The notes beneath the pieces were generated by a model that was not told the origin of the DNA, made no database searches, and saw only the letters and a program-made list of their open reading frames with translations. A stretch of DNA of 64,000 nucleotides from an uncultured Gammaproteobacteria bacterium (lineage in GTDB: Bacteria; Patescibacteriota; Microgenomatia; UBA10105; UBA927), in NCBI GenBank assembly GCA_964553825.1, contig CAZKLT010000004.1, positions 3,137 through 67,136 of the forward strand, read 5' to 3'. Both the position numbers and the translations under genes were made by a program. This document shows, in pieces, positions 16,053 to 51,677 of this stretch (positions are counted from its first letter, which is position 1; each line of letters opens with the position of its first letter).

Positions 16053-16166
16053 ACTGGCGCCAACAATACAGGAAGCGTGCATAATTTGCAAGGCAACTAT
16101 TGAGAAGCTTGACAGCAAACCGGAGAAAGTACATCATAAGGAAGAGTTCGTTGCCGGCACGATACT

Positions 16167-16622: not shown

Positions 16623-16662
16623 GATTGAGAGCGACATCCTGTATGCGTTGACAATCCCCAGT

Positions 16663-16671
16663 TGATACAAT
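16663..16671 (+). promoter_or_regulatory. Extended -10 element TGaTACAAT ending 6 nt before ATG of 16678 gene (putative leaderless mRNA)
   Basis: TGnTACAAT read from sequence; A of ATG is 7th nt after -10. Confidence 0.3.
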
Positions 16672-16677
16672 GAGCTA

Positions 16678-20212: not shown

Positions 20213-20237
20213 TAGTATCAGTATATAATAGCCGCAA

Positions 20238-22205: not shown

Positions 22206-22245
22206 GACGGTATTCTAGTCGCAAGCCTGCCAACCCGCAACCGCG

Positions 22246-22254
22246 TGCTACAAT
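22246..22254 (+). promoter_or_regulatory. Extended -10 element TGcTACAAT abutting first ATG of methyltransferase ORF (second Met at 22264 probably the true, near-leaderless start)
   Basis: Read from sequence. Confidence 0.3.
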
Positions 22255-23118: not shown

Positions 23119-23147
23119 CCGGAACCACTGCCCCCCGAAATGTACAC

Positions 23148-25770: not shown

Positions 25771-27701
25771 TTATTGGGTATTTCAAGCGGGGGCACAAAA
25801 ATCGGGGTAGGTGCGGGCGTGGAGAGCGTGGTCGGTGTTTGCGGAGTCGGGATTTCCGGAGATACCGGTCCCTGAAGTCCGTTGAGTTCGTTCGTGATGA
25901 GGGAATAGTCTTCCGATCCGGCCGGAACATACTTCTGTGCCTGTGCCCACGCTTCTTTCGTACGCTCGAGATCCCCGTTGAGTTTGTACGCGTTGCCGAG
26001 GTTATACCAGGCATTGGCATAATCCGGTTTGAGCGTGGTTGCGCGCTCAAATTGCGTTATCGCTTCGGTATAGTTTTTCATCCGGACGTACATGCCGCCT
26101 AATTCAAGCGGCAGCACGGGGTTCACGGGGTCCCGTTTTATTGCTTCTTTGAGGGTTGCCACCGCCCATCCGTCTGCACCCTGCGCTACGCCAATAAGCT
26201 GTTCATAGGTGCGCGCGAGATTTTCCCATGCGAGGATATTTACGGGATTGAGGCTTACGGCAGTTTTGGCTTCACGGATCGATTGAGAGACCAGTTGCGC
26301 CACCAAATCCCGGTCTTCCAGGGCAGCAGCGCTGCTTGCGTCCGGTTGTTCACTCAGGCTGGTAGCCAGGGAGGTGGCAAGTGCGAGATTGGTTTGACTG
26401 AAATAAATCCGCAGCCTGCTATTTTTCGGATTTGCTTGAATAGCCTTCGTTTGCAATGTATACGTCTCAGTTCCGTTGTTACTCCGTGCCGCTGCCAGTG
26501 ATCGGGCAAACAAGCGCTCAGATGCATATGCCTTTCCGGTGAAATAGAGCGATCCGGCGATAAAAAGCCCGATAAGCGTTAGGAAGAAAATCCGTTTCCC
26601 CGAAGAGAGCTTTGCGGCGGGTATGATTGTGGGCGGCGCATGCGTCTCAGAAAGCAAAAGGAGCACAAAAAGCGTCAGCACCACCGATACGCTCGGCGGA
26701 GACAGAAGTATGGCCAAGATGCCCAGGAAGAGCGCCCAGGATAAACCGGGAATTGTGTGTCCAGGTCGGTTTCGCCAGAGGGTGCGCAGCGTAAACAGAA
26801 GCGCGCCCAACCCCAGGAGCCCCCACACGGTCATGTAATGAAACAGTACGGAAGAATTTGTGAGAAACCGGACGCTCCAAAGCGGGGTAACGTTTACGCT
26901 TGCCGGTCTTGCGGCTGAGAACGCTGCAAGAAAATTTTCAGCGCCGACGCCAAACAGCGCCTGCTTCGGGCTCTTGAGGATTTCAAGCGTGATTGCCCAT
27001 CCCTGAGAAAAGGGGAGTATGGTTGCGGGAATTCTCGGAATGAGTTCCCACAGGGTTACCCCGATTCCAACCGCAATAACGATAGTCATAATAAGAAGAA
27101 GGACCATATGGGTCTCGTGGTTGCGTTTTACCGCGCGTATCGTATGACCAACCACGAGCGGGAAGCTTAGCAGGAGCATGGTGGCTGTGGCCAAGGTTGA
27201 TCCGGTCGGTGTCCAAAGGGGATCGGCAAGAAATGCTACGGAAGGAAACATAATTCTGCCCATTCCAAGGAGCTGGTAAACAGCCAGAAGCGAGAGTATT
27301 GTTGTGACCCAGAAATATGCCCAAAGCAGCCGGGTGTGCGTGTGTTCATCCCGAACCATCGGAAGGACGCAGGAAACAAGCGCAAGGCTCCCAAACAAGA
27401 CGATGCCCAGAGGGTGCATGAGCGCCTCGACTTTGTTCGTAGAGGCCATAATGAGGCTTGCCGTACCGGCAAGGGCAAGAAGTGTCAGGCTTCTCGTTGT
27501 GGTGCCGAGCGAAAGGGCAACCTGGGAATGCCGGTGAGCCAGTGTCCACGCGCTTCCGGCAAGGGTCGCGAGCGACAGGGCGATGATGAAAAAGAATTTC
27601 CCCATATCGTAGAAATCCTGTACAGCCGGAAGAAAAAAGATTGCAGCCAAAGCAAGTGCGGCGGGAAAAAGCCAGGAAACGAGCGCGGAGGTGTGCTTCA
27701 T
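25767..27701 (-). CDS. O-antigen-ligase/Wzy-like polytopic membrane protein fused to C-terminal TPR repeats
   Basis: N-terminal ~400 aa polytopic; C-terminal TPR-like helical repeats (AWYNLGNAYKLNGDLERTKEAW..). Confidence 0.6.
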   Translation of the reverse strand: MKHTSALVSWLFPAALALAAIFFLPAVQDFYDMGKFFFIIALSLATLAGSAWTLAHRHSQVALSLGTTTRSLTLLALAGTASLIMASTNKVEALMHPLGIVLFGSLALVSCVLPMVRDEHTHTRLLWAYFWVTTILSLLAVYQLLGMGRIMFPSVAFLADPLWTPTGSTLATATMLLLSFPLVVGHTIRAVKRNHETHMVLLLIMTIVIAVGIGVTLWELIPRIPATILPFSQGWAITLEILKSPKQALFGVGAENFLAAFSAARPASVNVTPLWSVRFLTNSSVLFHYMTVWGLLGLGALLFTLRTLWRNRPGHTIPGLSWALFLGILAILLSPPSVSVVLTLFVLLLLSETHAPPTIIPAAKLSSGKRIFFLTLIGLFIAGSLYFTGKAYASERLFARSLAAARSNNGTETYTLQTKAIQANPKNSRLRIYFSQTNLALATSLATSLSEQPDASSAAALEDRDLVAQLVSQSIREAKTAVSLNPVNILAWENLARTYEQLIGVAQGADGWAVATLKEAIKRDPVNPVLPLELGGMYVRMKNYTEAITQFERATTLKPDYANAWYNLGNAYKLNGDLERTKEAWAQAQKYVPAGSEDYSLITNELNGLQGPVSPEIPTPQTPTTLSTPAPTPIFVPPLEIPNN

Positions 27702-27732
27702 GAATACTGTTTATGATACGGCATCAAATCGA

Positions 27733-30459
27733 TCACTGCAATTCCATGAGCCGCTGGTCTCCCTCGGGACTGGACGGATCCAGCTGTTTGAATGTGAGGT
27801 ACGCCTTTCTCGCTTCGTCTGTTCTTCCGATTTTCGCATAGAGGTCTCCCAGGCTGATATACGCACGCGGCTTGATTTCATCGTCTGTTGTGGCTAAAAG
27901 AAGATACCGCTCCGATTCTCCGTACCGGTTTGCGTTCATATACATGCTGCCCAAAGCCAGCCAGGCCTGTGCTTTGAAGGGGGTCTCAAGACACCGCTTG
28001 AATGTTTCCTCTGCAAGGTCGTAATTTCCCTGCTGAAGGTATACATTGCCCAGGCCTATATAGCCGTTTCCCTGCGGGTTGATAGCTATTGCCTTTTGAA
28101 GCGGAATTATAGCATCGTCAAGTCGTCCCATCTGCAGGTAGAGATTTCCAAGTCCTTGAAATCGATCTGCCTTCGGATTTATTGCGATTGCCTTGTGTAT
28201 CGTTTCCTCAGCGAGGGAAAATTGCCGGGTTTGCACATAGAGTTCTGCCAAGCCGGTATACAGATCCGTATTGGGATCCACCTCAAGCGCTTTTGTGTAG
28301 TAGCGTTCGGACTCCTCGTACCGGCGCATGCGAAGGTAGAGGTCGCCGAGGGCAGCGTATAGTCCTGCGTATGTTGGGTCTATGGCAAGCCCCTGTCGCA
28401 GTACTTGTTCGGCAGAATCGAACTGACGGTATTGCATATAGAGATATGAGATCCCAAACAGCATGCCGGTATCCCGCGGGTTAATCTGAAGGGCACGCGT
28501 AAATGCTTGCTGCGAGTCGTCATGACGGCGAAGGACGCGGTACAGTTTGCCCAGATCGAAATACGCGCCGGTGTCGTGAGGGTTCAGTCTGATGGCGGTA
28601 AGAAAAAACCGTTCAGCTTGCGCATATTCACCACGCGTATATGAGACGCGTCCAAGTCCTGTGTATGCACCGCTATTTTCGGGATTATGTGCCAGGGACC
28701 TGGTGAATGCTTCCTGTGCCTGAGTAAGCTGGTTAAGCTTGATATGGGCATTGCCAAGTCCGTTTAACAACTCGGTTGCCATGGGATCATCCATGACACC
28801 GCTTGCATAGGCGTCAGCAGCTTTTTGAAATTGTTGTTGCGCGAAATATTCGTTGCCCAAAACGAGGAAGCGGTGTGCGGTTTCATCCCGAACAAAAAGA
28901 ATGATCGGATAGGTCATGTGTGTGGAGATACTGCGCAAGGGCACATACGGCATGCGTTCCATAATGTACGGTGCACAGGCCGACCGGGCTTGTTGCTGAT
29001 CCTCGCGAGATAATCCCACACAAGATACGAATAAGTAGTCGGTTTTTTCTGGAAGGATAAGCAATCCTTTATAGATATCCGTAGAAACCAGTTTTGATCC
29101 GGTTTTCTCTTCCAGCAGATGCCAGAAAAAGTATCCATAGTTAAGGCTGTATTCCTGCAAGGCGGCGACCTGTTGGACTTTGAAAGTATACACGGCATAG
29201 GTAGGCTTCGAATCGCCACGTTTCGGCAGCAGCGCAATCTCCCGGCGTACTAATTCTGCTGCCTGCTGTGCGGCAGGGTAGGGACGCTTCTTTTCCCACC
29301 GGAATCCGTCAGACTGCGAAAAGAGCATGAAGCCGGCAAGCGCGGCAGCAGCGATACGCAGCAGCGGATGGTGAGCCGAAAGCATATCCGACAGCACCAG
29401 CGCAGTTACAATACTGCCGAAGCCGAGGGCAAGATGCAGATAGTGTTCGGACGGCGCCAGGGAGAAGATCGGCATGATTAGAAGAGGAATAAGCGACAAT
29501 GCGAGCACGGCGAGGATGCTATTTCTTTCCCGCGCTGCTTTCCCGCGAAGGATCACAAACGCACTGAAAAAGTATAAAAGTCCCATCATCAGCTGGGATA
29601 GCGAAATAGATCCGATAGTCCCGGGATAAGGGAAAAGGAACATGCCGTACAGACGTGCGTATGTCTGGAGTCCCTGCAAATACTGTGGAAGCGTAGGGGT
29701 CAGAAGTTCTGAAAATTGATTCAAAGTAAATGAGCGATGAAACGCAAGTGACCAGGCGACACTGCCAAACGCAAGGCTGATACAGCACGCAGCAACTGCA
29801 GCTGTTTTTCGGTACGCATTGGCATGTGCAGGAAGGCGGCGAAGCACAATGAGGACGCCAATGATGTACACGGGGATATATGCGACCGATGAAAGGTATA
29901 GTCCCGTTGCAGCGACGAAGGCGGCAACGCTCCCAAGAAGAAAACCAAGTTTTCGCGATAGCCATGCCTGAACAAGCAGCGCGATGCTCACCATAAAAAG
30001 GGGCTGCATCACATACGGTTGGAAGAAAAACCTGGATGACCGCATGCCCCACGCGGAAAGGCTGATGAAAAGTACGCTAAGGAATGCCGCACGTATACCC
30101 AATACGCGTCTGACTATTTCCCAGATCGTAAAAGCCATCAGTCCCTGCATGGCTATATTCAAGGCGTTTAGGGTGAAAATACTGTTCCAGAGCATGAGGG
30201 GTACAGCCAGAAAATAGTAGTACAGTGGGCTGTTTATGGGTGCTTTTCCCTCAAAGGCTGTGGTGCCCACCAACGGGAATTCACCGTGCTTTATGATATG
30301 GGAAGCCACGAGATACTCCAGTGACGGATCTACCGTGTTGGGGTCAGGATAATTGAATAGGTACAGGTATGAGCGCAGGATGAGAGTGCCTGCGAGAAGT
30401 GTAATTAGTGCTTTGGTTGACAGTGTCATAGGGATGGTGTCATCATTTCTGAAATGCAC
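27733..30459 (-). CDS. Large GT-C-like membrane protein fused to ~11 C-terminal TPR repeats
   Basis: N-terminal ~520 aa polytopic; C-terminal tandem 34-aa TPR units (..GLGNAHIKLNQLTQAQEAFTRSLAHNPEN.. repeated). Confidence 0.7.
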   Translation of the reverse strand: MHFRNDDTIPMTLSTKALITLLAGTLILRSYLYLFNYPDPNTVDPSLEYLVASHIIKHGEFPLVGTTAFEGKAPINSPLYYYFLAVPLMLWNSIFTLNALNIAMQGLMAFTIWEIVRRVLGIRAAFLSVLFISLSAWGMRSSRFFFQPYVMQPLFMVSIALLVQAWLSRKLGFLLGSVAAFVAATGLYLSSVAYIPVYIIGVLIVLRRLPAHANAYRKTAAVAACCISLAFGSVAWSLAFHRSFTLNQFSELLTPTLPQYLQGLQTYARLYGMFLFPYPGTIGSISLSQLMMGLLYFFSAFVILRGKAARERNSILAVLALSLIPLLIMPIFSLAPSEHYLHLALGFGSIVTALVLSDMLSAHHPLLRIAAAALAGFMLFSQSDGFRWEKKRPYPAAQQAAELVRREIALLPKRGDSKPTYAVYTFKVQQVAALQEYSLNYGYFFWHLLEEKTGSKLVSTDIYKGLLILPEKTDYLFVSCVGLSREDQQQARSACAPYIMERMPYVPLRSISTHMTYPIILFVRDETAHRFLVLGNEYFAQQQFQKAADAYASGVMDDPMATELLNGLGNAHIKLNQLTQAQEAFTRSLAHNPENSGAYTGLGRVSYTRGEYAQAERFFLTAIRLNPHDTGAYFDLGKLYRVLRRHDDSQQAFTRALQINPRDTGMLFGISYLYMQYRQFDSAEQVLRQGLAIDPTYAGLYAALGDLYLRMRRYEESERYYTKALEVDPNTDLYTGLAELYVQTRQFSLAEETIHKAIAINPKADRFQGLGNLYLQMGRLDDAIIPLQKAIAINPQGNGYIGLGNVYLQQGNYDLAEETFKRCLETPFKAQAWLALGSMYMNANRYGESERYLLLATTDDEIKPRAYISLGDLYAKIGRTDEARKAYLTFKQLDPSSPEGDQRLMELQ

Positions 30460-30474
30460 TCATGATAATACGTT

Positions 30475-32073
30475 ATGAAGCGATTGCCTATACACGGACT
30501 GTTGGTTTTTTTCCTGATTATTTTTGGCATTGTGAACCGTGCCGGCCGTTTGGATATCGCGTTTGATCCAGAGGATACGCATCTTGATTATCTTGCGGCA
30601 CATCAGATGGTACGCTATGGACAGATTCCGCTGTCGGGATCAGGGAATCCTGTACTTATCGATAGCCCTTTATATTATTACATTACTGCAGCGTTTGTTA
30701 CGCTGAACGATAGCCTCCTGTTTCTGTCCATCGTGAACTTTGTCGTTATCCAGCCGATTCTGTTTGTGCTTTTTTACGCTTTGGCAAGCGCGCTGTTTGG
30801 CAAGTGGGTCGGCGTGTTTGCCGTAGCTCTTGCGGTTACCAGCTTTGAGTACGTTGCGATGGGTAGTTACTTTTTCCAAACGAACGTCATGCAGGTTTTC
30901 GCCAACGCGTCGTTTCTGTGTCTTGCCCTTGCATGGCGGCACAAACGCAAGGCACTGCTCGCCGCCAGCGTTGTGTTGTTGGCTATAGCGCTGACGATCC
31001 ATCACTCGGTGCTGGCGTTGTTGCCGCTTTTCGGGTTGCTCACTTTCAGGCTTATACCGCGCGCTCAGCGGGCTGCTGAATCGGTCCGGCTGGGGGCGCT
31101 CTGGCTGGGTTTTGTTTCCCTTTTCCATATCCCGGTGCTGATGCTGTTTCAAGCCGAGCCCGCATCCCTGGAGCGCGTGGCTGGCAGCGTATCGGCAGGG
31201 TACATAGGCTCCCCGGATGAATACGTAGGAAAATTTTTTGCCAATCTCCTGCAGTTTGTGTACGCGTTCTCGCTTCGATGGGTTGACAACGCACAAGTCG
31301 TAAATGGTGCATTACTGCTTCTTCTTGTCCTCGGTGGCGTTCAGTTCTTCAGACGGTCTTCTGCACCGCAACGGATGATTCTGGGTATTATGATTGCAGG
31401 AATCCTGCAGCTTGTGCTGCTTGCATCGCTGCTTCGTGTGGGAGTCTGGAATTTCACGTTTACGTCGTTGGCAGGCATCTATCTGATAACAGTTAGTGCC
31501 GTTGTGTTGCGGTGGTTTTCCGGCGGACTGCTGTCAAAAGCTATAGGCATCGCCTCTGTCGTCGCGGTGATGTATGCCTTTTCCAATGCCGGATACCTTA
31601 TGGGCGCTCCGGTATATCCACGGCTGTGGAGGTGGCAGCTGACCCAGGAATCTCTTGCCGCCATTTCGCTCACCGTTGAAAATATCCGCCAAGCGGAAAA
31701 TCGGCACGACGTGTCTTTTTTCCAGATTGAACGAGTCCATCGCAAGCCCTCGGGCGGACTGTTTGTGGATGTGTATTCGCCGGCGGGAATTCAGATTATT
31801 GCCGATTTGCTTTACTGGCCAGCCTTGCAGCAGCGGTTCGAACAGCCATTTGTCCGCATGGAGAAAGACGGATATTTCCCGACAATCCTCAATACGGATG
31901 ATTATGTTTTTGTCATTTGTGATTCAACCAGGGCGACATTTTTGGGGAGCGAGGATTGTCTCGTCCGGTATCTGTCCGATCGACCGAGCCGTACCTTCGT
32001 GCGTCATGTGTATGCATCAGAACTTATCACCGTGGAGCTTGTACGAAGAAGTGATGTCGCCAGGAGATTCTGA
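30475..32073 (+). CDS. Polytopic membrane protein, divergent paralog of N-domain of 27733..30459
   Basis: Shared N-terminal pattern (DPEDTHLDYLAAHQMVRYGQIPLSG..SPLYYY vs DPSLEYLVASHIIKHGEFPLVG..SPLYYY). Confidence 0.6.
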   Translation: MKRLPIHGLLVFFLIIFGIVNRAGRLDIAFDPEDTHLDYLAAHQMVRYGQIPLSGSGNPVLIDSPLYYYITAAFVTLNDSLLFLSIVNFVVIQPILFVLFYALASALFGKWVGVFAVALAVTSFEYVAMGSYFFQTNVMQVFANASFLCLALAWRHKRKALLAASVVLLAIALTIHHSVLALLPLFGLLTFRLIPRAQRAAESVRLGALWLGFVSLFHIPVLMLFQAEPASLERVAGSVSAGYIGSPDEYVGKFFANLLQFVYAFSLRWVDNAQVVNGALLLLLVLGGVQFFRRSSAPQRMILGIMIAGILQLVLLASLLRVGVWNFTFTSLAGIYLITVSAVVLRWFSGGLLSKAIGIASVVAVMYAFSNAGYLMGAPVYPRLWRWQLTQESLAAISLTVENIRQAENRHDVSFFQIERVHRKPSGGLFVDVYSPAGIQIIADLLYWPALQQRFEQPFVRMEKDGYFPTILNTDDYVFVICDSTRATFLGSEDCLVRYLSDRPSRTFVRHVYASELITVELVRRSDVARRF

Positions 32074-32093
32074 TGCGGCTCGGTACAATTTAA

Positions 32094-33620
32094 TTATTTT
32101 TCTAAGGCATAGAATGATGCCGTAAGGTGTTCGACAGGGGCGAAGTCATCCGTTAACAGCAATTCTCGGGATGGTGCGACAGGTCCATCGTACCGGTGCA
32201 ACAGATAGCCGGCCAATTCCTGATTATCCGTTGTCCACGATGGGGCTATCGACGATGACTGTGCAATAAGGACGATATTCTGGATGATGTCCGTTCGGGT
32301 CGGATCCAACACAGGGAACGCAAATACCTGCGGGAATATATGGGCATAGGTTGCCCGTTGCGCCCGGAAAAATGCACTATGCACGCCCTGTGGCGCCGAA
32401 ATCATGTTAACGACGATGACGCCGCCGGGATTGAGAATATTCCGCAGGGCTCGTGCCCACTCTATAGTTGTCAGGTGAAAGGGGATGGAATACTGCGGGT
32501 CAAACGCGTCAATAAATACCGCATCGTATCGGTGTGGCGTGGAATGGACGAACAAACGTGCATCCGTCGCATACGTGGCAATCGCAGGATATTCGTTCAG
32601 GTGAAAGTATGATCTGGCGATATCAACAAGCTGTCCGTCTATCTCCACGACATCGAGTCGTTTTTCCGGATTGCGCCGGATGAAATCCTTCGGAAATGAA
32701 TATCCTCCCGCCCCGATAACCAGTGCCCGCTGGATTGCGGGATTGAAATGGAAGGCCAATCGGAAAAACTTGAGATACGGGGCAACAAGGTCAGTATCCG
32801 CATCCAGAAACATGCTGGATTGGGATCCGTATGGGCTGGTTTGAAGGTAGCGTACCGGTTTGCCGGTTTGCCGGTCGGTCTGGTCTCGGATAAGGTATCG
32901 CCCATAGCGTGTGTCTATATCTGCGATAGCCCCGGGCCAGCTGGTGAGCGCGGGCGTTTTCCACGCGGCGAACATGGCGGCTACCCCCGCCCATAGAAAC
33001 GAAACAATGACGATTTTGGAAAGACGGTTTGGAGCCCACGCAAGGGCGAGTGCGCAGAGGATGACCGCCAACAGAAGAAGCGTTTTAGCATTCCCCAGGG
33101 CGGCAATCAGATAAAAACCCGCAAGAAACGTCCCGGCAATGCTGCCTACGGTGGAGCTGGCGTACATACGGGCAACGGTAACTCCGGCATTCGTCAGCGA
33201 ATGGAGGGCAAGACGCGTGGTATACGGCAGCACTATACCCAGGGCAACGGTGGGCAAGCCAAAGAGGAGAAGCGTGGCCAGTATCGAGCGCACCCGGATA
33301 TCGCCGATACTGCTGTTTATCGCCAGAAGCAGTCCGGGGGCGAGAAACGCACTCAGCGTGAGGCTAATGGACGCTCCAAGCAGGATCCACTGGAGAATGT
33401 CCGTTTTTCGCCGGTCAGCAAGTCTGCCGCCGAGTTCGTATCCGACTGCCAGCGTAGCCATGATTGTGCCGATAATGGCTGTCCACGCGACCAGGGAGGA
33501 GCCTATGGCCGGAGCCAGCACCCGGCTTGCGGTAAGCTCAAGCATCATCACGACGGCACCTGTCGTGCCTGCTGTAGCTTCAAGCTTGATACCTGAAGGA
33601 GGCGTCATAGTCTGTATCAT
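32094..33620 (-). CDS. Membrane protein fused to spermidine-synthase-like (polyamine aminopropyltransferase fold) domain
   Basis: N-terminal ~200 aa multi-TM; C-terminal ALVIGAGGYSFPKDF...VVEIDGQLVDIARSYF...DAVFIDAFDP matches spermine/spermidine synthase class-I MTase-like fold. Confidence 0.7.
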   Translation of the reverse strand: MIQTMTPPSGIKLEATAGTTGAVVMMLELTASRVLAPAIGSSLVAWTAIIGTIMATLAVGYELGGRLADRRKTDILQWILLGASISLTLSAFLAPGLLLAINSSIGDIRVRSILATLLLFGLPTVALGIVLPYTTRLALHSLTNAGVTVARMYASSTVGSIAGTFLAGFYLIAALGNAKTLLLLAVILCALALAWAPNRLSKIVIVSFLWAGVAAMFAAWKTPALTSWPGAIADIDTRYGRYLIRDQTDRQTGKPVRYLQTSPYGSQSSMFLDADTDLVAPYLKFFRLAFHFNPAIQRALVIGAGGYSFPKDFIRRNPEKRLDVVEIDGQLVDIARSYFHLNEYPAIATYATDARLFVHSTPHRYDAVFIDAFDPQYSIPFHLTTIEWARALRNILNPGGVIVVNMISAPQGVHSAFFRAQRATYAHIFPQVFAFPVLDPTRTDIIQNIVLIAQSSSIAPSWTTDNQELAGYLLHRYDGPVAPSRELLLTDDFAPVEHLTASFYALEK

Positions 33621-33662
33621 AGCACGCGGGGCGCGTCCCGAAGCGAAATAAGCCTATAGCAT

Positions 33663-33691
33663 TTGACGTGCATTGTGGCATAGGGTACAAT
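33663..33691 (+). promoter_or_regulatory. Sigma70-like promoter TTGACG-N17-TACAAT
   Basis: Exact hexamers and 17-nt spacer read from sequence in a 360-bp divergent intergenic region. Confidence 0.45.
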
Positions 33692-33752
33692 AGGGTAGTC
33701 GATCGCACATTGACATGTTGCACGACAGGCGGAACGCCACAGGCGTGAAATA

Positions 33753-33778
33753 CCCCGTGAGGCACGGGGATTTTTTTT
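33753..33778 (+). terminator. Rho-independent terminator CCCCGTG-AGG-CACGGGG followed by T8
   Basis: 7-bp GC-rich perfect stem, 3-nt loop, immediately followed by 8 T. Confidence 0.6.
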
Positions 33779-33983
33779 GCGTGTTTGGCTATACGCCTAT
33801 CGGTTTATCACGAAGTAAGAAAAGGGCGGCAGTAAGTCTTGGATGTGATCCAGGATTTTCCGCCGCTCTTTGAGAGGGTGGTCATCGCGAGTTTAAAGGA
33901 GCAAAAACGGGGGAGAGTAACGGAAGAAAAAAGAGTAAAAAGCGATTCCGGACGGACGTCCGGAGAAGGAAAAAGAGGTAAGA

Positions 33984-34982
33984 ATGGCTACAGTAAAGAA
34001 AGGCCACCCAAGTAATTTCCAGTTCGTATGGCGCGTGGGGTTAGTTTTGACGGCTATCCTGTTTGTTGTGCCCGTGCTTTTCCTGGCGGTCAACGCGCAG
34101 GAGCCTCCTGTCCCATACAACCCACCCGTGATTTTAGAGGCGACTGACACGGCTACGACGATGCCTGTGGCGACTGACACGGTTGAGCCCACCAACACGG
34201 TGCCGGCGGTAACGCCCACCTCAACCCGCATCCCGTGTCCACCTGTCGGCGAGCCTGCAGTTTACGGGGAAATCCGGGTTGTGTACCACGAGAGCGTGGG
34301 GGTGGATGCGTGTAATCTCATCCAGCGGTATGTTTCTCTAACCAATGAGAAGTTTTCTGCCATGGGATACGAGACTGGACCAATAGAGGTGGCAGTATTC
34401 ACCACTGTTGACGCCGTCACGGATTATACGTATGAAAAAGCCCGTTTGGCTGGGTGCAATCCTGACAGCAAGGACATCATCAGGTCCCAATGGACTCGTG
34501 GCGGCGCCATGAGTACGCACGGTGTCGCGTTGTTCATGACCACCGGATGGTGGAATGAAAATCCCTTGAACGAGCGGATTGTGGCTGTCGTCCATGAAAC
34601 AACACACGTGGTTCAGGGTAACTATGCCGGAAGCTGTGCGCGTAGCTGGCAAGTGCCAGATTGGTATTCCGAGGGACAGGCGCAGTATTTTGGCCGGCTT
34701 TTTGAATCCCAGTGGGGAATTATGCCGGCGGATATACGCTCGAATCTCTTGGGGTGCCGCGGACAGTTATCCAATCTATCCGGTGATTGCCTATACATGC
34801 AGGGGGAGCAAGCATTTGTTCTCCTTGCTCACCTTTATGGTGAGAAAAGCATGGATGTCTGGGTAAAGTTCGCCGAGGGAAAGTCGTTCAACACGGCTTT
34901 CTACGAAACATACGGCACAAGCGTCTCCCAGTTTTCAAGTGACTTTGATGCTTATGTCAAGGGAGGCTACCGTTTGCCGTAA
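33984..34982 (+). CDS. Secreted/membrane-anchored putative zinc metallopeptidase (HExxH) with Thr/Pro-rich linker
   Basis: N-terminal TM, T/P-rich low-complexity linker, VVHETTHVVQG (HExxH) with downstream E (EGQAQYFG); SD-like AGGAAAAAGAGG upstream. Confidence 0.5.
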   Translation: MATVKKGHPSNFQFVWRVGLVLTAILFVVPVLFLAVNAQEPPVPYNPPVILEATDTATTMPVATDTVEPTNTVPAVTPTSTRIPCPPVGEPAVYGEIRVVYHESVGVDACNLIQRYVSLTNEKFSAMGYETGPIEVAVFTTVDAVTDYTYEKARLAGCNPDSKDIIRSQWTRGGAMSTHGVALFMTTGWWNENPLNERIVAVVHETTHVVQGNYAGSCARSWQVPDWYSEGQAQYFGRLFESQWGIMPADIRSNLLGCRGQLSNLSGDCLYMQGEQAFVLLAHLYGEKSMDVWVKFAEGKSFNTAFYETYGTSVSQFSSDFDAYVKGGYRLP

Positions 34983-35002
34983 ATCGTGATGACCGATACC
35001 AA

Positions 35003-35055
35003 AACCCGGGGAGCGAGTTTGCTCCAACTTGTTCCCTGGGTTCGTATCATTTTTT
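35003..35055 (+). terminator. Possible terminator (compound hairpin AACCCGGG...CCCTGGGTT then T5)
   Basis: Imperfect stem, 8-nt gap before T-run; weak. Confidence 0.3.
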
Positions 35056-35079
35056 CGTATTTGTGATACGATAAATATT

Positions 35080-35637
35080 ATGGATGTGCAACAGTCGCAA
35101 TCACCACCAGGTGTACCACAACAACCAATACAGCCAATACAAGCACCGCCTCCTCCCGTCCCTGTCCAACCGCAGGCACCGCCTCCCACAACCGTGCAGG
35201 AGCAGCCGGTGAATGTTCACAAACGTTCCTCCCTGGGTATGTGGCTTTCTATCGCTTTTTTTATTCTTCTGGTTATCGCCGGGAATGTGTATATATTTCT
35301 TCCAAGAAGTGAGATTGATGTAGCAAATCCGGCACCCGGACGGACAATTCATGTGAACAAATTGTTTCTAACCAAGCCGGGCTGGCTGATCATCAGCCAT
35401 GTTTCAGTCGTGGAAGGAGTTACCGAGATTGCCGTTACTGCGCTCTTGGGACCGGAAGATTATCGTGATTTTGACCTGCCGCTTATGAGCGACGCGCTGG
35501 ATTTGGCGTCAGGGGATTTACTCTACGCAACACTGTATGAGGATACGAATGGCAATGAGGGATATGACTCGCGTATTGATAAGCCCATGCGAGATGCGTT
35601 ATTTCGCCCCATTCGCGTCAGCGTACGGGTTCAGTGA
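35080..35637 (+). CDS. Small membrane-anchored exported protein, family A (Pro/Gln-rich N-terminus)
   Basis: PGRTIHV..L.L.KPGWLIIS...LYEDTNGN...PIRV shared with 35710..36171. Confidence 0.55.
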   Translation: MDVQQSQSPPGVPQQPIQPIQAPPPPVPVQPQAPPPTTVQEQPVNVHKRSSLGMWLSIAFFILLVIAGNVYIFLPRSEIDVANPAPGRTIHVNKLFLTKPGWLIISHVSVVEGVTEIAVTALLGPEDYRDFDLPLMSDALDLASGDLLYATLYEDTNGNEGYDSRIDKPMRDALFRPIRVSVRVQ

Positions 35638-35709
35638 TTGTCCGTACAGGTATGCAGGGTGGGGGTGATTGTGTGTGAAGTATCGTAATACCAAAACATC
35701 CTGAGTGTT

Positions 35710-36171
35710 TTGGGCGCACCGTCAGCTCTTACTATGCAGGCGTCACGACCGATTGCGCAAAAAACTACCTGGTTTATCCCCATTGGGATAGCCAGCGTTT
35801 TCCTCGTATTGCTGGCTGGCTGGTTTATGGCCACTGCGCGAAGTTCCGTGCGGATTCAGGATCAAAAACCCGGACGAACCATCCGGGTGGCCGAACTTTC
35901 CCTTGCGCGTCCCGGCTGGCTGGTGGTCAACCGTGTGAATTTGACAGGCGGCGACGATGAAATTGCTGCTACACCTCGCTTAACGCCCGAGCAGTATAGA
36001 GAGTTTGATATTTCCCTGAAGGATGGGATGCCAGATCTTGCAACGGGGGATTTTTTGTTTGCTGTATTATATGAAGATCGCGATGGAAATAAACTGCTTG
36101 ATACTCTGGTTGATCGACCTATGAACAACCGCTGGGGCAGGCCGATACGTATCTTATTGCGCGTCAAATAA
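35710..36171 (+). CDS. Small membrane-anchored exported protein, family A
   Basis: PGRTIRVAELSLARPGWLVVN...LYEDRDGN...PIRILLRVK paralog of previous. Confidence 0.55.
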   Translation: MGAPSALTMQASRPIAQKTTWFIPIGIASVFLVLLAGWFMATARSSVRIQDQKPGRTIRVAELSLARPGWLVVNRVNLTGGDDEIAATPRLTPEQYREFDISLKDGMPDLATGDFLFAVLYEDRDGNKLLDTLVDRPMNNRWGRPIRILLRVK

Positions 36172-36173
36172 TG

Positions 36174-36875
36174 TTAGAAGATAGTCGTGTTTGGAAGCAT
36201 TTCCTGGAGAGTAGTGTAGGTTGCGGCGTCGATAGCATTTCCTCCCAGATACAGGTAGCGCAGGTTTGTGAGGCGAGACAATTCCTCAGGGAGCGTGGTG
36301 AGTCTGTTGCTACGCAGATCCAACGACGTTAATGCTGCCAGATCGCCGATCGTAGCCGGGAGATGGGTAATTGCGTTGTTGTTCAGTCGAAGCGTAACGA
36401 GTGCAGTCAGTTTCCCGATTTCGGGGGGGAGTTCTGTAAGCTTGTTGAACGGTAGTTCTAACGCGGTCAAACCGACGAGGTCACCGATTTGCGCAGGCAT
36501 CTGCGCCATCTGCGTATTGCTGACGCGAAGAAACGTGAGCGATGAGAGAAGTCCAATTTCCTGAGGGAGGTGCCGGAAAGAGGCGCTTTCTATGGTTAGC
36601 CGCTCAAGGGCAATGAGCGTGGCGATTTCTGCTGGAAGCATCTCTACAGTATCTTGCGGTGAAATATTGAGATCCTTCAGGTGCGGATTTTCGGCGATGA
36701 TCGCAGCGAGGCGCGCAGTGTCTGTCGGCTGCTGTAGTTGCCCCTGCGAGATGGTGGTGCCGCCAAAATGTGCAAACCGTGCGGCAAGATGCGGCGTAAG
36801 CTGCACCAGGCTGATAATCGCAGCTGCAAGCGATATGATGATGACCAGGGCACTGAGTGTGCGGCGTGCTGTCAT
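36174..36875 (-). CDS. Leucine-rich repeat protein, N-terminal membrane anchor
   Basis: Seven+ 23-aa LRR units (L..LP..IG.L..L..L.L..N.L..LP). Confidence 0.85.
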   Translation of the reverse strand: MTARRTLSALVIIISLAAAIISLVQLTPHLAARFAHFGGTTISQGQLQQPTDTARLAAIIAENPHLKDLNISPQDTVEMLPAEIATLIALERLTIESASFRHLPQEIGLLSSLTFLRVSNTQMAQMPAQIGDLVGLTALELPFNKLTELPPEIGKLTALVTLRLNNNAITHLPATIGDLAALTSLDLRSNRLTTLPEELSRLTNLRYLYLGGNAIDAATYTTLQEMLPNTTIF

Positions 36876-36912
36876 TGACAGTATTTAGTATAGCATGTAA
36901 GACTAAGACTGC

Positions 36913-37344
36913 ATGATGCGGTGGATTGTCATTGGTTTTTGCTGGCTTGTTGCGCTTGCAGCACAGGGCGCGCGTTGGAGCCTGCAGCAGTCTGCCATAG
37001 CTGTCCATGACCAGCCCATCGGGGATACGGTTGTTGTGGATCGCGCGCGTACACCTGAACCAGGTGTTTTGGCTGTTGTAAACTCCCTTTACGGCAAGCC
37101 CTATTTTGAGCATATCCTTGATCAGGTAGACCTTCCCCGCGCGGGGACATATACACAGGTACAGATGTCAATCGCACAATATTCGCTCGGTTCTTCCCAG
37201 GCGCCCGAAGGCACAGAGGGGATATTGTCTCCAGGAAGCCTTGTCTATGCCGTGCTTATGGTTCCTAAGGCGCCGGGAGAAACACCGGAGCCGATGCGTG
37301 ATATTACCGGAAAACCGCTTGCCCACCCATTTCGATTACAGTAG
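36913..37344 (+). CDS. Small exported protein, family A (divergent)
   Basis: Signal anchor then V.DQPIGDTVVVDRA..PG.LAVV pattern shared with 38610..39014. Confidence 0.5.
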   Translation: MMRWIVIGFCWLVALAAQGARWSLQQSAIAVHDQPIGDTVVVDRARTPEPGVLAVVNSLYGKPYFEHILDQVDLPRAGTYTQVQMSIAQYSLGSSQAPEGTEGILSPGSLVYAVLMVPKAPGETPEPMRDITGKPLAHPFRLQ

Positions 37345-38070
37345 CTAGAAGTGTATATCGACATCCGGAAGTATGGCGCGGATGCGTGCCTTTTCTGTCT
37401 CAGAAATAAGATTTCCTCCCACATACAGTCGTTTTAGTGTACCGTTAAGTTTTGTCATGGAGTCAGGCAGCGTCCTGAGCCTATTGGACCGGGCATCCAG
37501 GACGGTCAGCGCCGTAAGATTGCCGATCGAATCGGGAAGCGTGGTGAGGCGATTGTCATAGATGTGCAGCGTGGTGAGGCGCGTAAGCGCTCCGATGGAA
37601 TCCGGAAGGGTCTCAAGCGCGTTTCCGCCCAGCTTCAGTGTCTCCAGCCGTGTAAGATTGCCAATCGTATCCGGAAGGTGCATTATGCGCTGGTCCTGTA
37701 TTTGCAGTCGGGTGAGCGAGGTAAGCGACCCGAGAGAAGCAGGAACGACGCGTACGTTTCCCCGGACAACTCCATAGCGGGCGAGCTGTTTCATGGGCAG
37801 AAGGGTGTCGATGTGAAGCGCGTTGATGTTGCATACCGGCGAATAGTCCAGCGTCGTTACCCGGGGCAATTTTTCCCAGACAGCGCGCAGTGACCTGCCG
37901 GCATCCCGGTCATACGTGCCCAGCGTCTCACAGTATTCCACCGGATCGTACGCCAGTTGTCTTGCAACGGGTTGAACCAGGAGTGTCGCGCCGGATACCC
38001 ATCCGGCAAAAAGGGACACACCCCACAGAAGAAGGGAAAAAGCCGGTGTGTGTCGTGCCTGCATGCGCAT
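37345..38070 (-). CDS. Leucine-rich repeat protein, N-terminal membrane anchor
   Basis: LPDTIGNLTRLETLKLGGNALETLPDSIGALTRLTTLHIYDNRLTTLPDSIGNLTALTVLDARSNRLRTLPDS. Confidence 0.85.
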   Translation of the reverse strand: MRMQARHTPAFSLLLWGVSLFAGWVSGATLLVQPVARQLAYDPVEYCETLGTYDRDAGRSLRAVWEKLPRVTTLDYSPVCNINALHIDTLLPMKQLARYGVVRGNVRVVPASLGSLTSLTRLQIQDQRIMHLPDTIGNLTRLETLKLGGNALETLPDSIGALTRLTTLHIYDNRLTTLPDSIGNLTALTVLDARSNRLRTLPDSMTKLNGTLKRLYVGGNLISETEKARIRAILPDVDIHF

Positions 38071-38106
38071 AGAATTCGTATACCTGCTATCATTATAGCA
38101 ACGATT

Positions 38107-38613
38107 ATGACAGCGGCGAAACAGGCTCTCTCCTACGAAACGTGGGGCATCTTGGTTGTTTTCTTTCTTCTTGCGGCTGTGGCGTATTTTATCCGTTTCG
38201 TCGATACGCCGTCGCGGAAAATTTTTGGTGCGCAGATGTTTAACCAGGTTACGAACCGTGCGGACATGCCGATATGGGAGAACCCCGATTTCCCGCGTCA
38301 GGCAGGTTTACTTGAGATTTTTTCCATAAATGGCATGCTTGTGTTTGATGGTCACTTTGAACGACCTCTTCCCAAGACATCACTTGTCGTGTGGGTGCAT
38401 GTGGGAAGCTGTCGGCACATGGGAGAGAGGCGCTACGTACTGCCGCCGACATCAGCAGAAGCATCGGTCTGGTGGACGAGTTTGTATGCGTTCCCCTGGG
38501 AGCGGCTTTCGGGTGAGCTTCCGCTTGCGGTTTCGTTTCGCGATCCGGACGGTGAGCATGCGATATATTATTGCGCTGATATTCTGATGGAACAGGAAGG
38601 AGAGGCACCATGA
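38107..38613 (+). CDS. Hypothetical membrane-anchored protein
   Basis: Start set at internal Met to avoid overlap with LRR gene; one N-terminal TM. Confidence 0.4.
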   Translation: MTAAKQALSYETWGILVVFFLLAAVAYFIRFVDTPSRKIFGAQMFNQVTNRADMPIWENPDFPRQAGLLEIFSINGMLVFDGHFERPLPKTSLVVWVHVGSCRHMGERRYVLPPTSAEASVWWTSLYAFPWERLSGELPLAVSFRDPDGEHAIYYCADILMEQEGEAP

Positions 38614-39014
38614 GTGCATGGATACTCGCGGCACTTGTGTTTTGTCTAAGCGCGGTGGTTTCGGCGTACGTATCGCTTGCGCGCACAGCGTATGATCTGG
38701 TCGTGAACGATCAACCGGTCGGGACATCGATTGTGGTTGAGCGGCTGGTGCTTGAAAAAGGAGGCTATCTTGCCATCACACCGCTTTCCGGTCCAAACAC
38801 GCAGCAGTCAGTTTCCGACTATATGCCTGCAGGCGTATTTACTGATTTCAATGTGGATATCTATTGGGGAGACGAGCTTGATCTTCCGGCGCAGACGCCG
38901 GTAGTTGTACGGATCCTCGTGGATAACGGGGATGTGTACTTTGACTCGGAATTTGATGTACCTGCCCGAAACGCGCAGGGGCAGATGTATGAAAAAACGA
39001 TTGTCCTTCGGTAG
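38610..39014 (+). CDS. Small exported protein, family A (divergent)
   Basis: ATGA overlap with previous; VVNDQPVGTSIVVERLVLEKGGYLAI. Confidence 0.5.
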   Translation: MSAWILAALVFCLSAVVSAYVSLARTAYDLVVNDQPVGTSIVVERLVLEKGGYLAITPLSGPNTQQSVSDYMPAGVFTDFNVDIYWGDELDLPAQTPVVVRILVDNGDVYFDSEFDVPARNAQGQMYEKTIVLR

Positions 39015-40128
39015 ACTGGCCGTTGTTGTCGCGCTTGCTGTCCTGTGCGGCTTGGCGGCAGGTGCTTTGTTTAGAGGAATCAGAGGGGAGACGCTGAGGG
39101 AGCATGTCGCCTCCGCGTTTACATCCTGCGCAGAACCCACGAAGGAATTCGACTACAACTGTCTGCGAACGGTCATGACGCCGCTTGTGCGTGAGGATAC
39201 GCTTACACCCGTAATGGAGCACCTGCACGATATTTTTTCGTCGCCTGATGTTTCGCTTCAGACGCATGGTGCGCTGACGTGTCATCCGTCCGGCCATGTG
39301 GCAGGAGAGATAGCCGCAGAGAAACACATAGCGTTTTCCCGTATTACGCAGTTGTGCGGCGCGTCGTGCGATTACGGATGCACACATGGGGCATTTGTGG
39401 TAACGCTGCGGCGTGATCCTGGCTTTCTGGACAGAGTGGGTACCCTGTGCGATGAACTTTCTTCTTCCGGTATACGGCGGCAAATGTCTTCGTGTGGGCA
39501 TGTCGTCGGCCATGGGTTGGCCGAGGTATTTGCCAGCAACACTGACAAGGCTCTCGGGTATTGCGATGCGATTGATGATGCGTCCGCGCGTCATGCCTGT
39601 GGGCAGGGGGTTATGATGGAACAGCTTATTGGACTGCCAGACCGGCCAAAGAATATACCGTTGTCGTTGGAAAGCGTGCTGGTATTTTGCGACAGCCTTC
39701 CGGGTGTCTATAGGAAAGAGTGTTTCGATAACGTAGGAACGTATGCCGGACGGATTACGCAAACGGTACAGGAGGCGAAAGATGTCTGCACGCATGTTCC
39801 TGCTGAGTCAGCCGTGGCGTGTGTACAATCTCTTGGCGGCGTGGCGTACTATCATTTCCGGCATGAACCGGAGCAAATGAGCGCATACTGTCGCTCGATG
39901 GACAGTGCAGTGCAGGCGCCGTGCGTTCGGGGCGTTCTGGAGACCAGCGTCGGCGAAAAAGACCGCTTATGGTATGGCAATGCCCTCTGCAGGACATTTG
40001 CGCAATCCGCCCGCAGGGATTGTTTCGCATACTTCGGTATCCAGGTGGGCATGGCCTGGGGAGACCAGGTACGGGCAGATACGTGCAGTGCGCTGGAGAA
40101 AGAGGATATGCAGGCGTGTCAATTATGA
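38989..40128 (+). CDS. Cys/His-rich membrane-anchored paralog 1 (subtype D)
   Basis: N-terminal TM; CHPSGHVAGE..CGASCDYGCTHGAF..CGHVVGHG..CGQGV; start at internal Met MKKRLSF. Confidence 0.65.
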   Translation: MKKRLSFGRLAVVVALAVLCGLAAGALFRGIRGETLREHVASAFTSCAEPTKEFDYNCLRTVMTPLVREDTLTPVMEHLHDIFSSPDVSLQTHGALTCHPSGHVAGEIAAEKHIAFSRITQLCGASCDYGCTHGAFVVTLRRDPGFLDRVGTLCDELSSSGIRRQMSSCGHVVGHGLAEVFASNTDKALGYCDAIDDASARHACGQGVMMEQLIGLPDRPKNIPLSLESVLVFCDSLPGVYRKECFDNVGTYAGRITQTVQEAKDVCTHVPAESAVACVQSLGGVAYYHFRHEPEQMSAYCRSMDSAVQAPCVRGVLETSVGEKDRLWYGNALCRTFAQSARRDCFAYFGIQVGMAWGDQVRADTCSALEKEDMQACQL

Positions 40129-41066
40129 ATATCCGCACCATTTTTTCCCGCCTTCCGGTGCCCATGAGGTGGGTCATCCTGCTTGGGGCAATCGGGATAG
40201 CGCTTTTTGCCGTTACCAAGACAGGATATACCGACCGCCGGCATCCAGCGCTTCTGAGTGGCAGGGAAGTCGTACGGGTGCGTGGACAGATTACGCGTGT
40301 CATGCGGACGAAAGGGCCGCGGGTAGCGTATGCATACGCCAAGACATTGTTTCCGTACGACACATCGGGTGTTTCCCAGCACTTGACGATGCATATCTTT
40401 GCGGAAGTGGCGTACGGCCGGTACGGCGCCACCGCCATGGCGTATTGTGATCGGGAGTTTTCATATGGGTGCTATCATGGCTTTTTGGGGCAGAATATTG
40501 CCCGTGAGGGTCTGGACGCGGCGCGAGATCTTTTTCTGGCATGTAAGGATGAACCGAATGTCATCGCATGCCAGCATGGGATCGGGCATGGCATTATGCA
40601 ATATATGGGCCACAGACGTTTGAAGGATGCTCTTGATGCTTGTGTGCAGATCGGCGCACCCGTCGCCGCGACCGGATGCTTCGGTGGTGCGTATATGGAG
40701 TATCACTTTCCCGCGTTGTCAGCCGGCGGGGCACAGACGGCGATGCGGTTTGATCCAGAGAATCCGTATGACGTCTGTCCTGAGCTCCCGACTGCGTACC
40801 AGTCGTCGTGTTACTTCCGTCTGGCCGAGTGGTGGGAGCAGATTCTTAGCCGTAACTACCGCCTGATGGGCGGACTGTGTGCCAGGATAGGGGAGAGCGG
40901 GATGCGTGAGCAGTGCTTTACCGCCATCGGGGCAACGAGTTTTACCACCGGGGGACATATCCGGCAGGGGGTTATCGATGCCTGCAATCAGGCGACAGGC
41001 AGCCCGGGATACGAGCGGTACCGGGATATCTGTTTGCGGGGATTTGATACACAGAGTCAACGTTGA
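40125..41066 (+). CDS. Cys/His-rich membrane-anchored paralog 2 (subtype D)
   Basis: ATGA overlap with paralog 1; MHIFAEVAYG..CDREFSYGCYHGF..CQHGIGHG..CFGGAY. Confidence 0.7.
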   Translation: MNIRTIFSRLPVPMRWVILLGAIGIALFAVTKTGYTDRRHPALLSGREVVRVRGQITRVMRTKGPRVAYAYAKTLFPYDTSGVSQHLTMHIFAEVAYGRYGATAMAYCDREFSYGCYHGFLGQNIAREGLDAARDLFLACKDEPNVIACQHGIGHGIMQYMGHRRLKDALDACVQIGAPVAATGCFGGAYMEYHFPALSAGGAQTAMRFDPENPYDVCPELPTAYQSSCYFRLAEWWEQILSRNYRLMGGLCARIGESGMREQCFTAIGATSFTTGGHIRQGVIDACNQATGSPGYERYRDICLRGFDTQSQR

Positions 41067-41072
41067 TCAGGC

Positions 41073-42161: not shown

Positions 42162-42164
42162 ATG

Positions 42165-42740: not shown

Positions 42741-42865
42741 GACAATGTCCTTATCTTCATCCTAGGAATACGCACATCTCTTGTCAAGGGGTAAACGTGA
42801 TATACGTTACTGACCGTTTACTATATAGTTGATACAACGATGTAAGATAGATTACTTGAGACTGA

Positions 42866-45524: not shown

Positions 45525-45526
45525 CG

Positions 45527-51676: not shown

Positions 51677-51677
51677 T

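Follow-up and report, generated by a model that had tools for sequence, protein, structure and literature searches.

What does a bacterium transcribe from a near-consensus promoter that is followed, within a few tens of nucleotides, by a strong intrinsic terminator? The question is raised by a 64,000-nt stretch of DNA from an uncultured bacterium (contig CAZKLT010000004.1; hereafter the window), in which both signals lie between a divergent gene and a gene for a membrane-anchored protein with an HExxH motif (the HExxH gene). An earlier inspection of the letters, here called the sequence-only reading, had proposed either a stand-alone small RNA (sRNA) of about 80 nt or the 5' end of a leader of about 285 nt that serves the HExxH gene and is regulated by termination and antitermination. 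Herein, we weigh these proposals and their rivals against orthologous loci, RNA folding and long-range complementarity.

The locus carries a real, functionally constrained RNA element. Its family is unlisted and its kind is known: a structured attenuating leader, possibly with a by-product sRNA. Between the two proposals we favor the leader, because there is a single promoter, because structure belonging to the plus-strand RNA continues past the terminator, because the region pairs with both ends of the HExxH open reading frame (ORF), and because its linkage to that gene is kept. Judging from sequence, we consider it moderately likely that the element is the 5' end of a conserved, cis-acting, structured leader of ~286 nt, which would attenuate transcription and occlude translation in an operon of the HExxH protease and a DUF7282 protein; the ~80-nt RNA would be its by-product. 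The antitermination part of the earlier proposal is not supported as it was worded, since no conserved antiterminator was found. It is possible that the terminated ~80-nt RNA has a function as well; this is compatible with the leader, and the two readings are not mutually exclusive.

The promoter, the predicted short RNA and its terminator

Syntenic loci were recovered via the HExxH protein and via the product of the divergent gene, a spermidine-synthase-like protein. They yielded five distinct versions of the intergenic region: that of the window, one shared by loci L001 and L002, one shared by L003 and L004, that of L020, and one shared by L017, L018 and L019. Among the window, the L001 group and L017, the flanking proteins are 45–60% identical and the 4-fold degenerate sites of both flanking genes are at saturation (25–35% identity); coding DNA, as far as BLAST aligns it, is 64–69% identical. 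The short-RNA region has 70–78% pairwise identity and more than 55 invariant columns. The sequence-only reading had asked for the conservation of the interval in relatives, and the outcome was positive: promoter, ~80-nt body and terminator are kept in all five distinct orthologous loci.

The -35 element TTGACG (33663..33668) and the -10 element TACAAT (33686..33691) are separated by a 17-nt spacer and match the consensus at 10 of 12 positions. A consensus scan of the region returned one promoter-like site where 0.9 were expected, which alone is not significant. Across the five lineages, TTGAC and TACAAT are unchanged and spacers measure 17–18 nt, and the scans of L017, L020 and L001 each found one sigma-70-like promoter, TTGACT-17/18-TACAAT, at the homologous position. 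The promoter proposed from the window alone is therefore present and recurs in every orthologous locus. Just 5' of the -35 element, a block of 17 nt is nearly invariant; within it AAATA(A)..CCTATAGCA(T/C) is kept in all five lineages, including L017, whose upstream neighbor is a different gene. Every lineage keeps a direct repeat, GCCTAT(A/C)G, found at 33652..33659, just 5' of the -35 element, and at 33796..33803, in box B1 of the leader (Table 1). The two copies may be protein-binding half-sites, or their likeness may be fortuitous. An inverted repeat around the unit (33648..33660 and 33788..33800) was considered as a pair of terminal repeats and rejected, because it is not conserved in the orthologues.

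The terminator consists of the hairpin CCCCGTG/AGG/CACGGGG (33753..33769; 6 of 7 pairs are G-C), a single A, and a run of eight T (33771..33778). It begins about 60 nt downstream of the promoter and some 55 nt into the predicted RNA. With its G+C-rich stem, short loop and directly following U tract it has the architecture of an intrinsic terminator, from which stopping in vivo is predicted. The consensus scan of the region gave two terminator-like sites against 1.8 expected, again not significant alone. A strict scan of the whole window (perfect stem, at least five G-C pairs, at least six T in eight) singled out the hairpin at 33753 as the sole clean intergenic match and the sole perfect canonical terminator; the few other matches lie inside ORFs and depend on G.U pairs. 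The stem is invariant in the five lineages and one pair longer in L001, L003 and L020, and in L017, L020 and L001 the only forward-strand terminator-like site stands at the homologous position. The strong terminator of the sequence-only reading is thus confirmed. Canonical terminators of the hairpin-plus-T-run type are almost absent from gene ends across the window (1..64000). Because the hairpin at 33753 is the only perfect example there, the source organism seems to make little use of them.

The predicted transcript of 81 nt, whose start was placed solely by the position of the -10 element, folds at -28.5 kcal/mol (z = -3.2). In the minimum-free-energy (MFE) folds of four of the five orthologues it has the order of stem-loop P1, the invariant segment ACGACAGGCG, the small variable hairpin P2, and the terminator; the MFE fold of L017 lacks P1. 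All nine pairs of P1 are invariant. P2 shows one double change, from A-U to G-C, and one pair altered on a single side; an alternative hairpin, GGCG-GAA-CGCC, shares its middle strand. Over the short RNA as a whole, 16 of 20 pairs never vary in the five sequences and one is changed on both sides; since the pairs are nearly invariant, covariation neither supports nor contradicts this fold. Searched with a covariance model of the short RNA, each locus yielded a single copy; neither the rest of the window nor the rest of the 185 kb of loci contained another, and the reverse-strand matches were the terminator palindrome only. A resemblance of UGUUGC..ACAGGCGGAAC to the RAT and ops elements is not claimed, as the segment does not overlap the terminator and its GGCGG part is not conserved in the orthologues.

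The sequence-only reading had held that no protein of meaningful length is encoded between the signals and that the largest ORF has 15 aa. The figure was too low, as ORFs of 52 aa (33715..33873) and 26 aa run across or between the signals. The description as non-coding stands, because neither frames nor stops of these ORFs are conserved among the orthologues. Leader peptides and upstream ORFs (the 52-aa ORF, a 58-aa ORF and a 407-aa gene call in L001) were rejected for their unconserved frames; for a leader peptide, a conserved start codon and a Shine-Dalgarno sequence are likewise missing, and stops vary between lineages. The 407-aa call is a public annotation of the HExxH homologue in L001 (6001..7224) that extends about 75 codons upstream, through hairpin P4, box B2 and hairpin P5 of the leader; given the conserved start ATGGCTAC, it is an over-extension.

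The same observations bear on ribosome-mediated attenuation of the pyrBI kind, in which translation of a short ORF (MLHDRR...) by a ribosome trailing the polymerase, begun at an AUG or UUG of the P1 loop and continued into the terminator or past it, would keep the hairpin from forming. An ORF from that (A/U)UG does reach at least the 5' arm of the terminator in five of five lineages, with invariant tandem Arg codons. Yet a 13-codon open frame is expected by chance about half the time, no Shine-Dalgarno sequence precedes it, L001 and L003 have CTTG in place of ATG, and the terminator is crossed in three reading frames, with stops that differ (after 14 to ~60 codons). We therefore consider this mechanism very unlikely.

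When the 3' arm of the terminator was removed from the folds, no conserved pairing of the 5' arm appeared in the orthologues; the best alternative comprised 4 bp and was found in the window only. In the absence of a conserved antiterminator helix there is no visible RNA-level means to regulate read-through. This bears on the proposal of a terminator controlled by a trans-acting factor, in which P1, the A box and P2 would form a riboswitch aptamer, or the 5' domain would be recognized by an RNA-binding or processive antitermination protein, so that read-through would depend on a signal. In its favor, an invariant 55-nt domain lies directly 5' of a strong and itself invariant terminator, and expression of the gene depends on read-through. 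The locus also lies within a cell-envelope glycan cluster, and processive antitermination of the RfaH/LoaP type is common in clusters of this sort. However, in the five sequences the stems hardly vary whereas the loops do, the opposite of the usual riboswitch pattern, and no NusG-like, ANTAR, PRD or RNA-binding regulator was found among the ~37 ORFs of the window (~27 of at least 200 aa) scanned against Pfam or NCBIfam. The Rfam search suggested in the sequence-only reading came back empty for the window and two orthologues, and described aptamers were unmatched too: across 4227 families, cmscan gave no hit at the gathering score in the window, and up to E = 10 the window, L017 and L001 showed only miRNA and lncRNA noise on P4 and P5. 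The mutually exclusive antiterminator that defines a riboregulator is missing, which by the usual criterion sets the element apart from classical riboswitches and attenuators (PMC5314783). Control of the terminator by a trans-acting factor thus appears quite improbable.

Structure and pairing beyond the terminator

If the short RNA were the only product of the promoter, the DNA beyond the terminator would need a promoter of its own. Scans for sigma-70-type promoters found no second site between the terminator and the HExxH ATG, either in the window or in the orthologues L017, L020 and L001. What does follow the terminator is structure. Hairpin P4 recurs in every lineage with 20-plus bp and a folding energy between -30 and -36 kcal/mol (z -4.8 to -8.1). 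Both partners have changed in 11 of its 22 pairs, a degree of covariation that 0 of 500 shuffles matched, and 92% of the cells of its alignment are paired, compared with 39–49% in slid controls. About 13 cells hold G.U pairs, which would be A.C on the other strand; the leader RNA is therefore made from the plus strand. The sequence-only reading had described this part as "further hairpins" at 33857..33895, where one long hairpin (33821..33871) is the better description, and its palindrome at 33934..33951 lies in fact at 33947..33964. The latter is hairpin P5, which is rebuilt at the same place with a different sequence in each lineage (CCGGAC/GUCCGG, CGGGAC/GUCCCG, CUCCGG/CCGGAG). CsrA-type GGA loops in P5 were considered and rejected as not conserved. 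Between B2 and P5, at about 33890..33946, the spacer has a GC skew of 0.38 and an AT skew of 0.32, an invariant GGGGGA, and AAGGAGC in four of five lineages (not in L017). No conserved start codon or ORF was found in it, and it is possibly a ribosome standby or protein-binding region.

Boxes B1 and B2 contain the invariant sequences GCCTATCGGT and GAGGGTGGT, respectively, and each is complementary to more than one other segment of the transcript. The 5' half of B2, GGGUGGUC (33876..33883), pairs with GGCCACCC (the T box) in the first codons of the HExxH ORF. The resulting helix (-14 to -17 kcal/mol) encloses P5, the Shine-Dalgarno region and the AUG, and is part of both the MFE and the centroid folds of the window, L020 and L017. 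In four lineages CCACCC stands at +20 or +23, in codons for G-H-P or S-H-P; in L017 it stands at +4, in different codons (A-T-L), and the helix takes in the AUG itself.

A further partner lies at the far end of the ORF. The I box, UCGUGAUGACCGAUA, is a 15-nt segment that is invariant in the five lineages, and it complements B1 (UAUCGGUUUAUCACGA, 33798..33813), which lies ~1.19–1.21 kb upstream, right after the terminator. In L001 and L020 the B1:I helix runs without interruption for 16 bp, a length that 0 of 2000 shuffles reached; the remaining three lineages have 15–16 bp interrupted by a single bulge. Duplex energies range from -20 to -24.5 kcal/mol. Within the entire transcript upstream of I, four of five lineages offer no better partner for it than B1. 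When the two boxes are aligned, pairing holds for 95% of cells, compared with 22–43% in slid controls, and the three variable positions all keep pairing. The I box also complements the 3' half of B2 (GGUCAUCRC) over 10–12 contiguous bp. B1 has a second partner as well: the A box of the short RNA, CGACAGGCG, pairs with YGCCUAUCG (33794..33802, overlapping B1) at -11 to -12 kcal/mol in all five lineages, and a C/U change opposite the last G of the A box keeps this pairing. Two pairs of mutually exclusive helices result, A:B1 versus B1:I and B2:T versus B2:I.

The I box opens a spacer of 98 nt between the HExxH stop and the DUF7282 ATG (34983..35080) that is as conserved as the leader, with 82% column identity over the five lineages and nested hairpins. 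In the block of hairpins H1 and H2, L020 carries a compensatory CCCAAGG/CCUUGGG change, and three pairs are changed on both sides; covariation is seen in H1, as it is in P4 and P5. Such a conserved, structured spacer implies that the HExxH and DUF7282 genes are co-transcribed and that the DUF7282 gene is under RNA-level control.

The complementary boxes could instead act at the level of DNA, as operators or, in the case of B1 and I, as the inverted ends of a 1.2-kb segment that includes the HExxH gene and would be invertible or mobile. B1 and the reverse complement of I are indeed imperfect copies of one sequence of 16–17 nt, which stands on both sides of the ORF; five copies of a GT(C/A)ATCAC-like box occur, in both orientations, and P1, which follows closely on the promoter, makes an imperfect palindrome in the DNA. 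But all six base differences of B1 or B2 from the reverse complement of I give G.U pairs on the plus strand (A·C on the other), which points to an RNA duplex of that strand. Furthermore, the segment has a single orientation in nine of nine independent contigs, no recombinase was seen in or beside it, and no similarity to plasmids or phages was found. A DNA-level role is in our judgment highly improbable.

The question of which gene the element serves was answered by a rearrangement. In L017, L018 and L019 the spermidine-synthase-like gene has been relocated beyond the DUF7282 gene (7899..11518 in L017), and the intergenic region directly follows a PMT_2 gene and its stop codon. Even there the unit is complete: everything from the AAATA block to the ATG, the downstream hairpins included, immediately precedes the HExxH homologue. 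Because it stays with that gene, the element belongs to the HExxH gene and not to the divergent one. As expected of a cis-acting leader, it is on the same strand as the gene, no promoter intervenes, and the linkage is conserved. The HExxH homologues P0002, P0003, P0004, P0007 and P0008 have other gene contexts and short upstream spacers, and lack the motif. Scans with two exact IUPAC patterns found the L001 genome only, plus two chance matches in coding sequences, among the GTDB species genomes, and in the JGI metagenomes a single match, a chance one in a high-G+C coding region. Given these scans and the homologues without the element, it is confined to a small clade of uncultured bacteria. 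A protein search for close relatives in the GTDB genomes found none.

These results also bear on the stand-alone sRNA, whose ~80 nt would act in trans through the invariant segments while the HExxH mRNA came from a separate, unrecognized downstream promoter. The short RNA has what is typical of such genes: its own near-consensus promoter, a 5' stem-loop, an invariant linker, and its own terminator hairpin with U8. The invariance of the stems fits selection on sequence rather than on pairing alone, and the absence of an antiterminator agrees with this proposal too; the A box, with a conserved 9-nt complement in the adjoining leader, would have a possible target in trans or in cis. Nevertheless, the orthologues lack a second sigma-70-like promoter between terminator and ATG. 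The unit occurs once per locus and never apart from the HExxH gene, with which it moved in L017, so that genomic independence is not seen, and HExxH homologues outside the clade are without it. B1, which follows directly on the terminator, does not vary either, and its partner lies at the far end of the HExxH ORF. A purely trans-acting sRNA gene is thus unlikely in our estimate.

Table 1. The leader, its boxes and hairpins, and the genes they adjoin, in window coordinates.
Feature	Coordinates	Strand	Basis
A/T-rich block and CCTATAGCA; candidate UP-element-like or regulator site	33646..33662	+	Conservation in five lineages
Sigma-70-type promoter, TTGACG-17-TACAAT	33663..33691	+	Consensus scan, orthologue conservation
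Predicted 5' end (~33697/33698) and stem-loop P1 (outer GUCG/CGAC, inner GCACA/UGUUGC)	33698..33726	+	MFE folds
A box, CGACAGGCG	33723..33731	+	Invariant; complement of YGCCUAUCG (33794..33802)
P2, small variable hairpin ACGCC-ACA-GGCGU	33734..33746	+	Only variable helix of the short RNA
Intrinsic terminator: 7-bp G+C stem, 3-nt loop, A, then U8	33753..33778	+	Scan and orthologues
B1 box, (C)GCCUAUCGGUUUAUCACGA	33794..33813	+	5' part complements A box; UAUCGGU..AUCACGA complements I box
P4, long two-tier hairpin	33821..33871	+	Folding and covariation
B2 box, GAGGGUGGUCAUCGCGA	33874..33890	+	5' half GGGUGGUC complements T box; 3' half GGUCAUCRC complements I box
Purine-rich, largely unstructured spacer	33891..33946	+	Skew and conservation
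P5, hairpin directly 5' of the ribosome-binding site	33947..33964	+	Perfect 8-nt arms in the window
Purine-rich Shine-Dalgarno region and ATG (33984) of the HExxH gene	33965..33986	+	Conserved start
HExxH gene, membrane-anchored and Peptidase_MA_2-like, served by the leader	33984..34982	+	PF13485
T box, GGCCACCC, in the first codons	34002..34009	+	Complement of GGGUGGUC (B2)
I box, UCGUGAUGACCGAUA, one base after the HExxH stop codon	34984..34998	+	Complement of B1 and B2
Hairpins H1 and H2, before the DUF7282 ATG (35081)	H1 35003..35042; H2 35043..35070	+	Conservation

A proposed mechanism and its precedents

Herein, we describe how the leader might work. Transcription would start near 33698 from the one strong sigma-70-type promoter, and RNA polymerase would first make the nearly invariant 5' domain with P1, the A box and P2. 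After some 55 nt the polymerase would meet the intrinsic terminator, and the transcripts that stop there would be the ~80-nt RNA. The RNA of polymerases that read through, whether under regulation or by leakage, would contain B1, P4, B2, the purine-rich spacer, P5, the ribosome-binding site and the ORF. In this RNA, GGGUGGUC of B2 may close the helix with GGCCACCC around the ribosome-binding site and the AUG and so hold translation down. Once transcribed, the I box could take either of two partners: B1, in a helix of 15–16 bp with the entire ORF looped out, or the 3' half of B2, in competition with the helix of the start region; the A box of the 5' domain would in turn compete for B1. Expression would thus be limited twice, by early termination and by an occluded start region, and the alternative long-range helices would set the fate of the full-length RNA. 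The direction of each of these effects is our conjecture.

Several points weigh against the leader reading. Start site, termination efficiency and read-through are predictions. The comparison includes only five sequences, from three to four independent lineages. A strong terminator that nothing relieves would silence the gene, and no RNA-level control of read-through is visible. An alternative-sigma promoter may lie within 33779..33820, the promoter scans having been aimed at sigma-70-type sites. The helices of the short RNA are invariant, and hence neither supported nor tested by covariation, and the invariance of both strands of a stem could equally fit DNA operators or sequence-specific pairing in trans. 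The energy of the B1:I duplex is not extreme, its -20 to -24.5 kcal/mol comparing with a shuffled minimum of -24 to -27 kcal/mol. Finally, the I box never varies, so the long-range helices are argued from one-sided changes and from the statistics of complementarity.

A bolder version of the leader reading treats leader, ORF and post-stop spacer together as a single RNA device with several states, in which the I box would serve as a "completion" signal in cis, competing for B2 with the start region and for B1 with the A box. We regard this as rather unlikely. If it were true, translation of the protease, or the balance between protease and DUF7282 protein, would be licensed only on full-length transcripts, and early termination would supply abundant ~80-nt RNA, whose A box could titrate B1 in trans. 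Attenuation, occlusion of the start site and 5'–3' pairing across an ORF would then be combined in one previously undescribed element.

Several known systems are comparable with the favored leader. In rRNA operons, complementary flanks of the rRNA genes form a helix, the processing stalk, which is cut by RNase III. Here too, complementary flanks around a functional unit of ~1.2 kb can loop the unit out; the unit, however, is a protein-coding ORF, the helix has only 15–16 bp, and any cleavage is hypothetical. Trans-acting sRNAs of the Hfq type have ~80 nt, a near-consensus promoter, a 5' stem-loop, a conserved linker and a terminator with a long U tail. The short RNA agrees with them in size, in having its own promoter, and in its 5' stem-loop, linker and U-tailed terminator, but differs in its strict linkage to one gene, in being continuous with a conserved structured leader, and in having no known independent copies or targets.

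Mapping of 3' ends in E. coli has shown that promoter-proximal premature termination in 5' untranslated regions (UTRs) releases short RNAs (PMC7815308). The present locus shares with those cases a terminator tens of nucleotides into a long 5' UTR, and a short RNA and a read-through mRNA are the outputs predicted from its one promoter; it differs in that the ends of its transcripts are predicted, in an uncultured organism, and in having no known effector or competing structure. Riboregulators in the sense of PASIFIC, that is riboswitches and attenuators, are defined by mutually exclusive terminator and antiterminator folds (PMC5314783). They have in common with our element a conserved structured domain directly 5' of a terminator in the leader of the regulated gene; here, by contrast, neither an antiterminator nor an Rfam match was found, and the stems of the five sequences are largely invariant rather than covarying. 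In the icaR mRNA of S. aureus, pairing between the 5' UTR and the 3' UTR controls translation and cleavage by RNase III (PMC3868564). Our leader likewise has sequence complementary to a segment right after the stop codon of the same ORF, with a predicted effect on translation, on RNase III processing, or on both. The two systems part in the details: the 3' UTR of icaR pairs with the Shine-Dalgarno region, whereas the I box pairs with B1 or B2 and not with the ribosome-binding site, the other half of B2 pairing with the first codons. In addition, the I box lies in an intercistronic spacer instead of a terminal 3' UTR, and cleavage is hypothetical in our case.

The conserved pairing across the ORF is the unusual feature of the element. 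Such 5'–3' pairing has been documented for very few bacterial mRNAs, and a conserved natural example with one-sided compensatory changes should be useful. The element adds an uncatalogued and strongly constrained regulatory RNA from poorly studied uncultured bacteria, and it would combine an early terminator, an occluded start region and pairing between leader and post-stop spacer, three layers of control for a single small operon, each testable by mutation. Its reach is limited by its occurrence in only five related lineages, in which the gene it would regulate encodes a putative protease.

The neighboring genes

The window represents a cell-envelope and glycan cluster, with sugar aminotransferases, dehydratases, PMT_2 and TPR glycosyltransferases, and LRR and DUF7282 proteins; no tRNA or tmRNA genes were found. 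The HExxH protein matches Pfam PF13485 weakly, at E = 1e-5 and below the gathering score, and had no significant sequence match among solved structures. Eight homologues were found among 5.8 billion proteins. Its start, ATGGC(T/C)AC, is conserved in all orthologues. Named homologues of two neighboring genes come only from metagenome-assembled genomes of Patescibacteria (candidate phyla radiation) and, for the spermidine-synthase-like protein, also from Bdellovibrionales and Desulfobacterota, at 38–59% identity.

The divergent gene on the minus strand encodes a membrane spermidine-synthase-like (SpeE-like) protein and probably starts at the ATG at 33608, not at 33620. The upstream ATG falls inside a conserved extended -10 element, TGcTATGAT (33624..33616, minus strand). 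The sequence-only reading had given the intergenic region 360 bp; as the divergent gene most likely starts at 33608, the region measures ~375 bp. In the window and in L001, TGcTATGAT ends 6–7 nt before the second ATG, which suggests that the spermidine-synthase-like mRNA is leaderless or nearly so.

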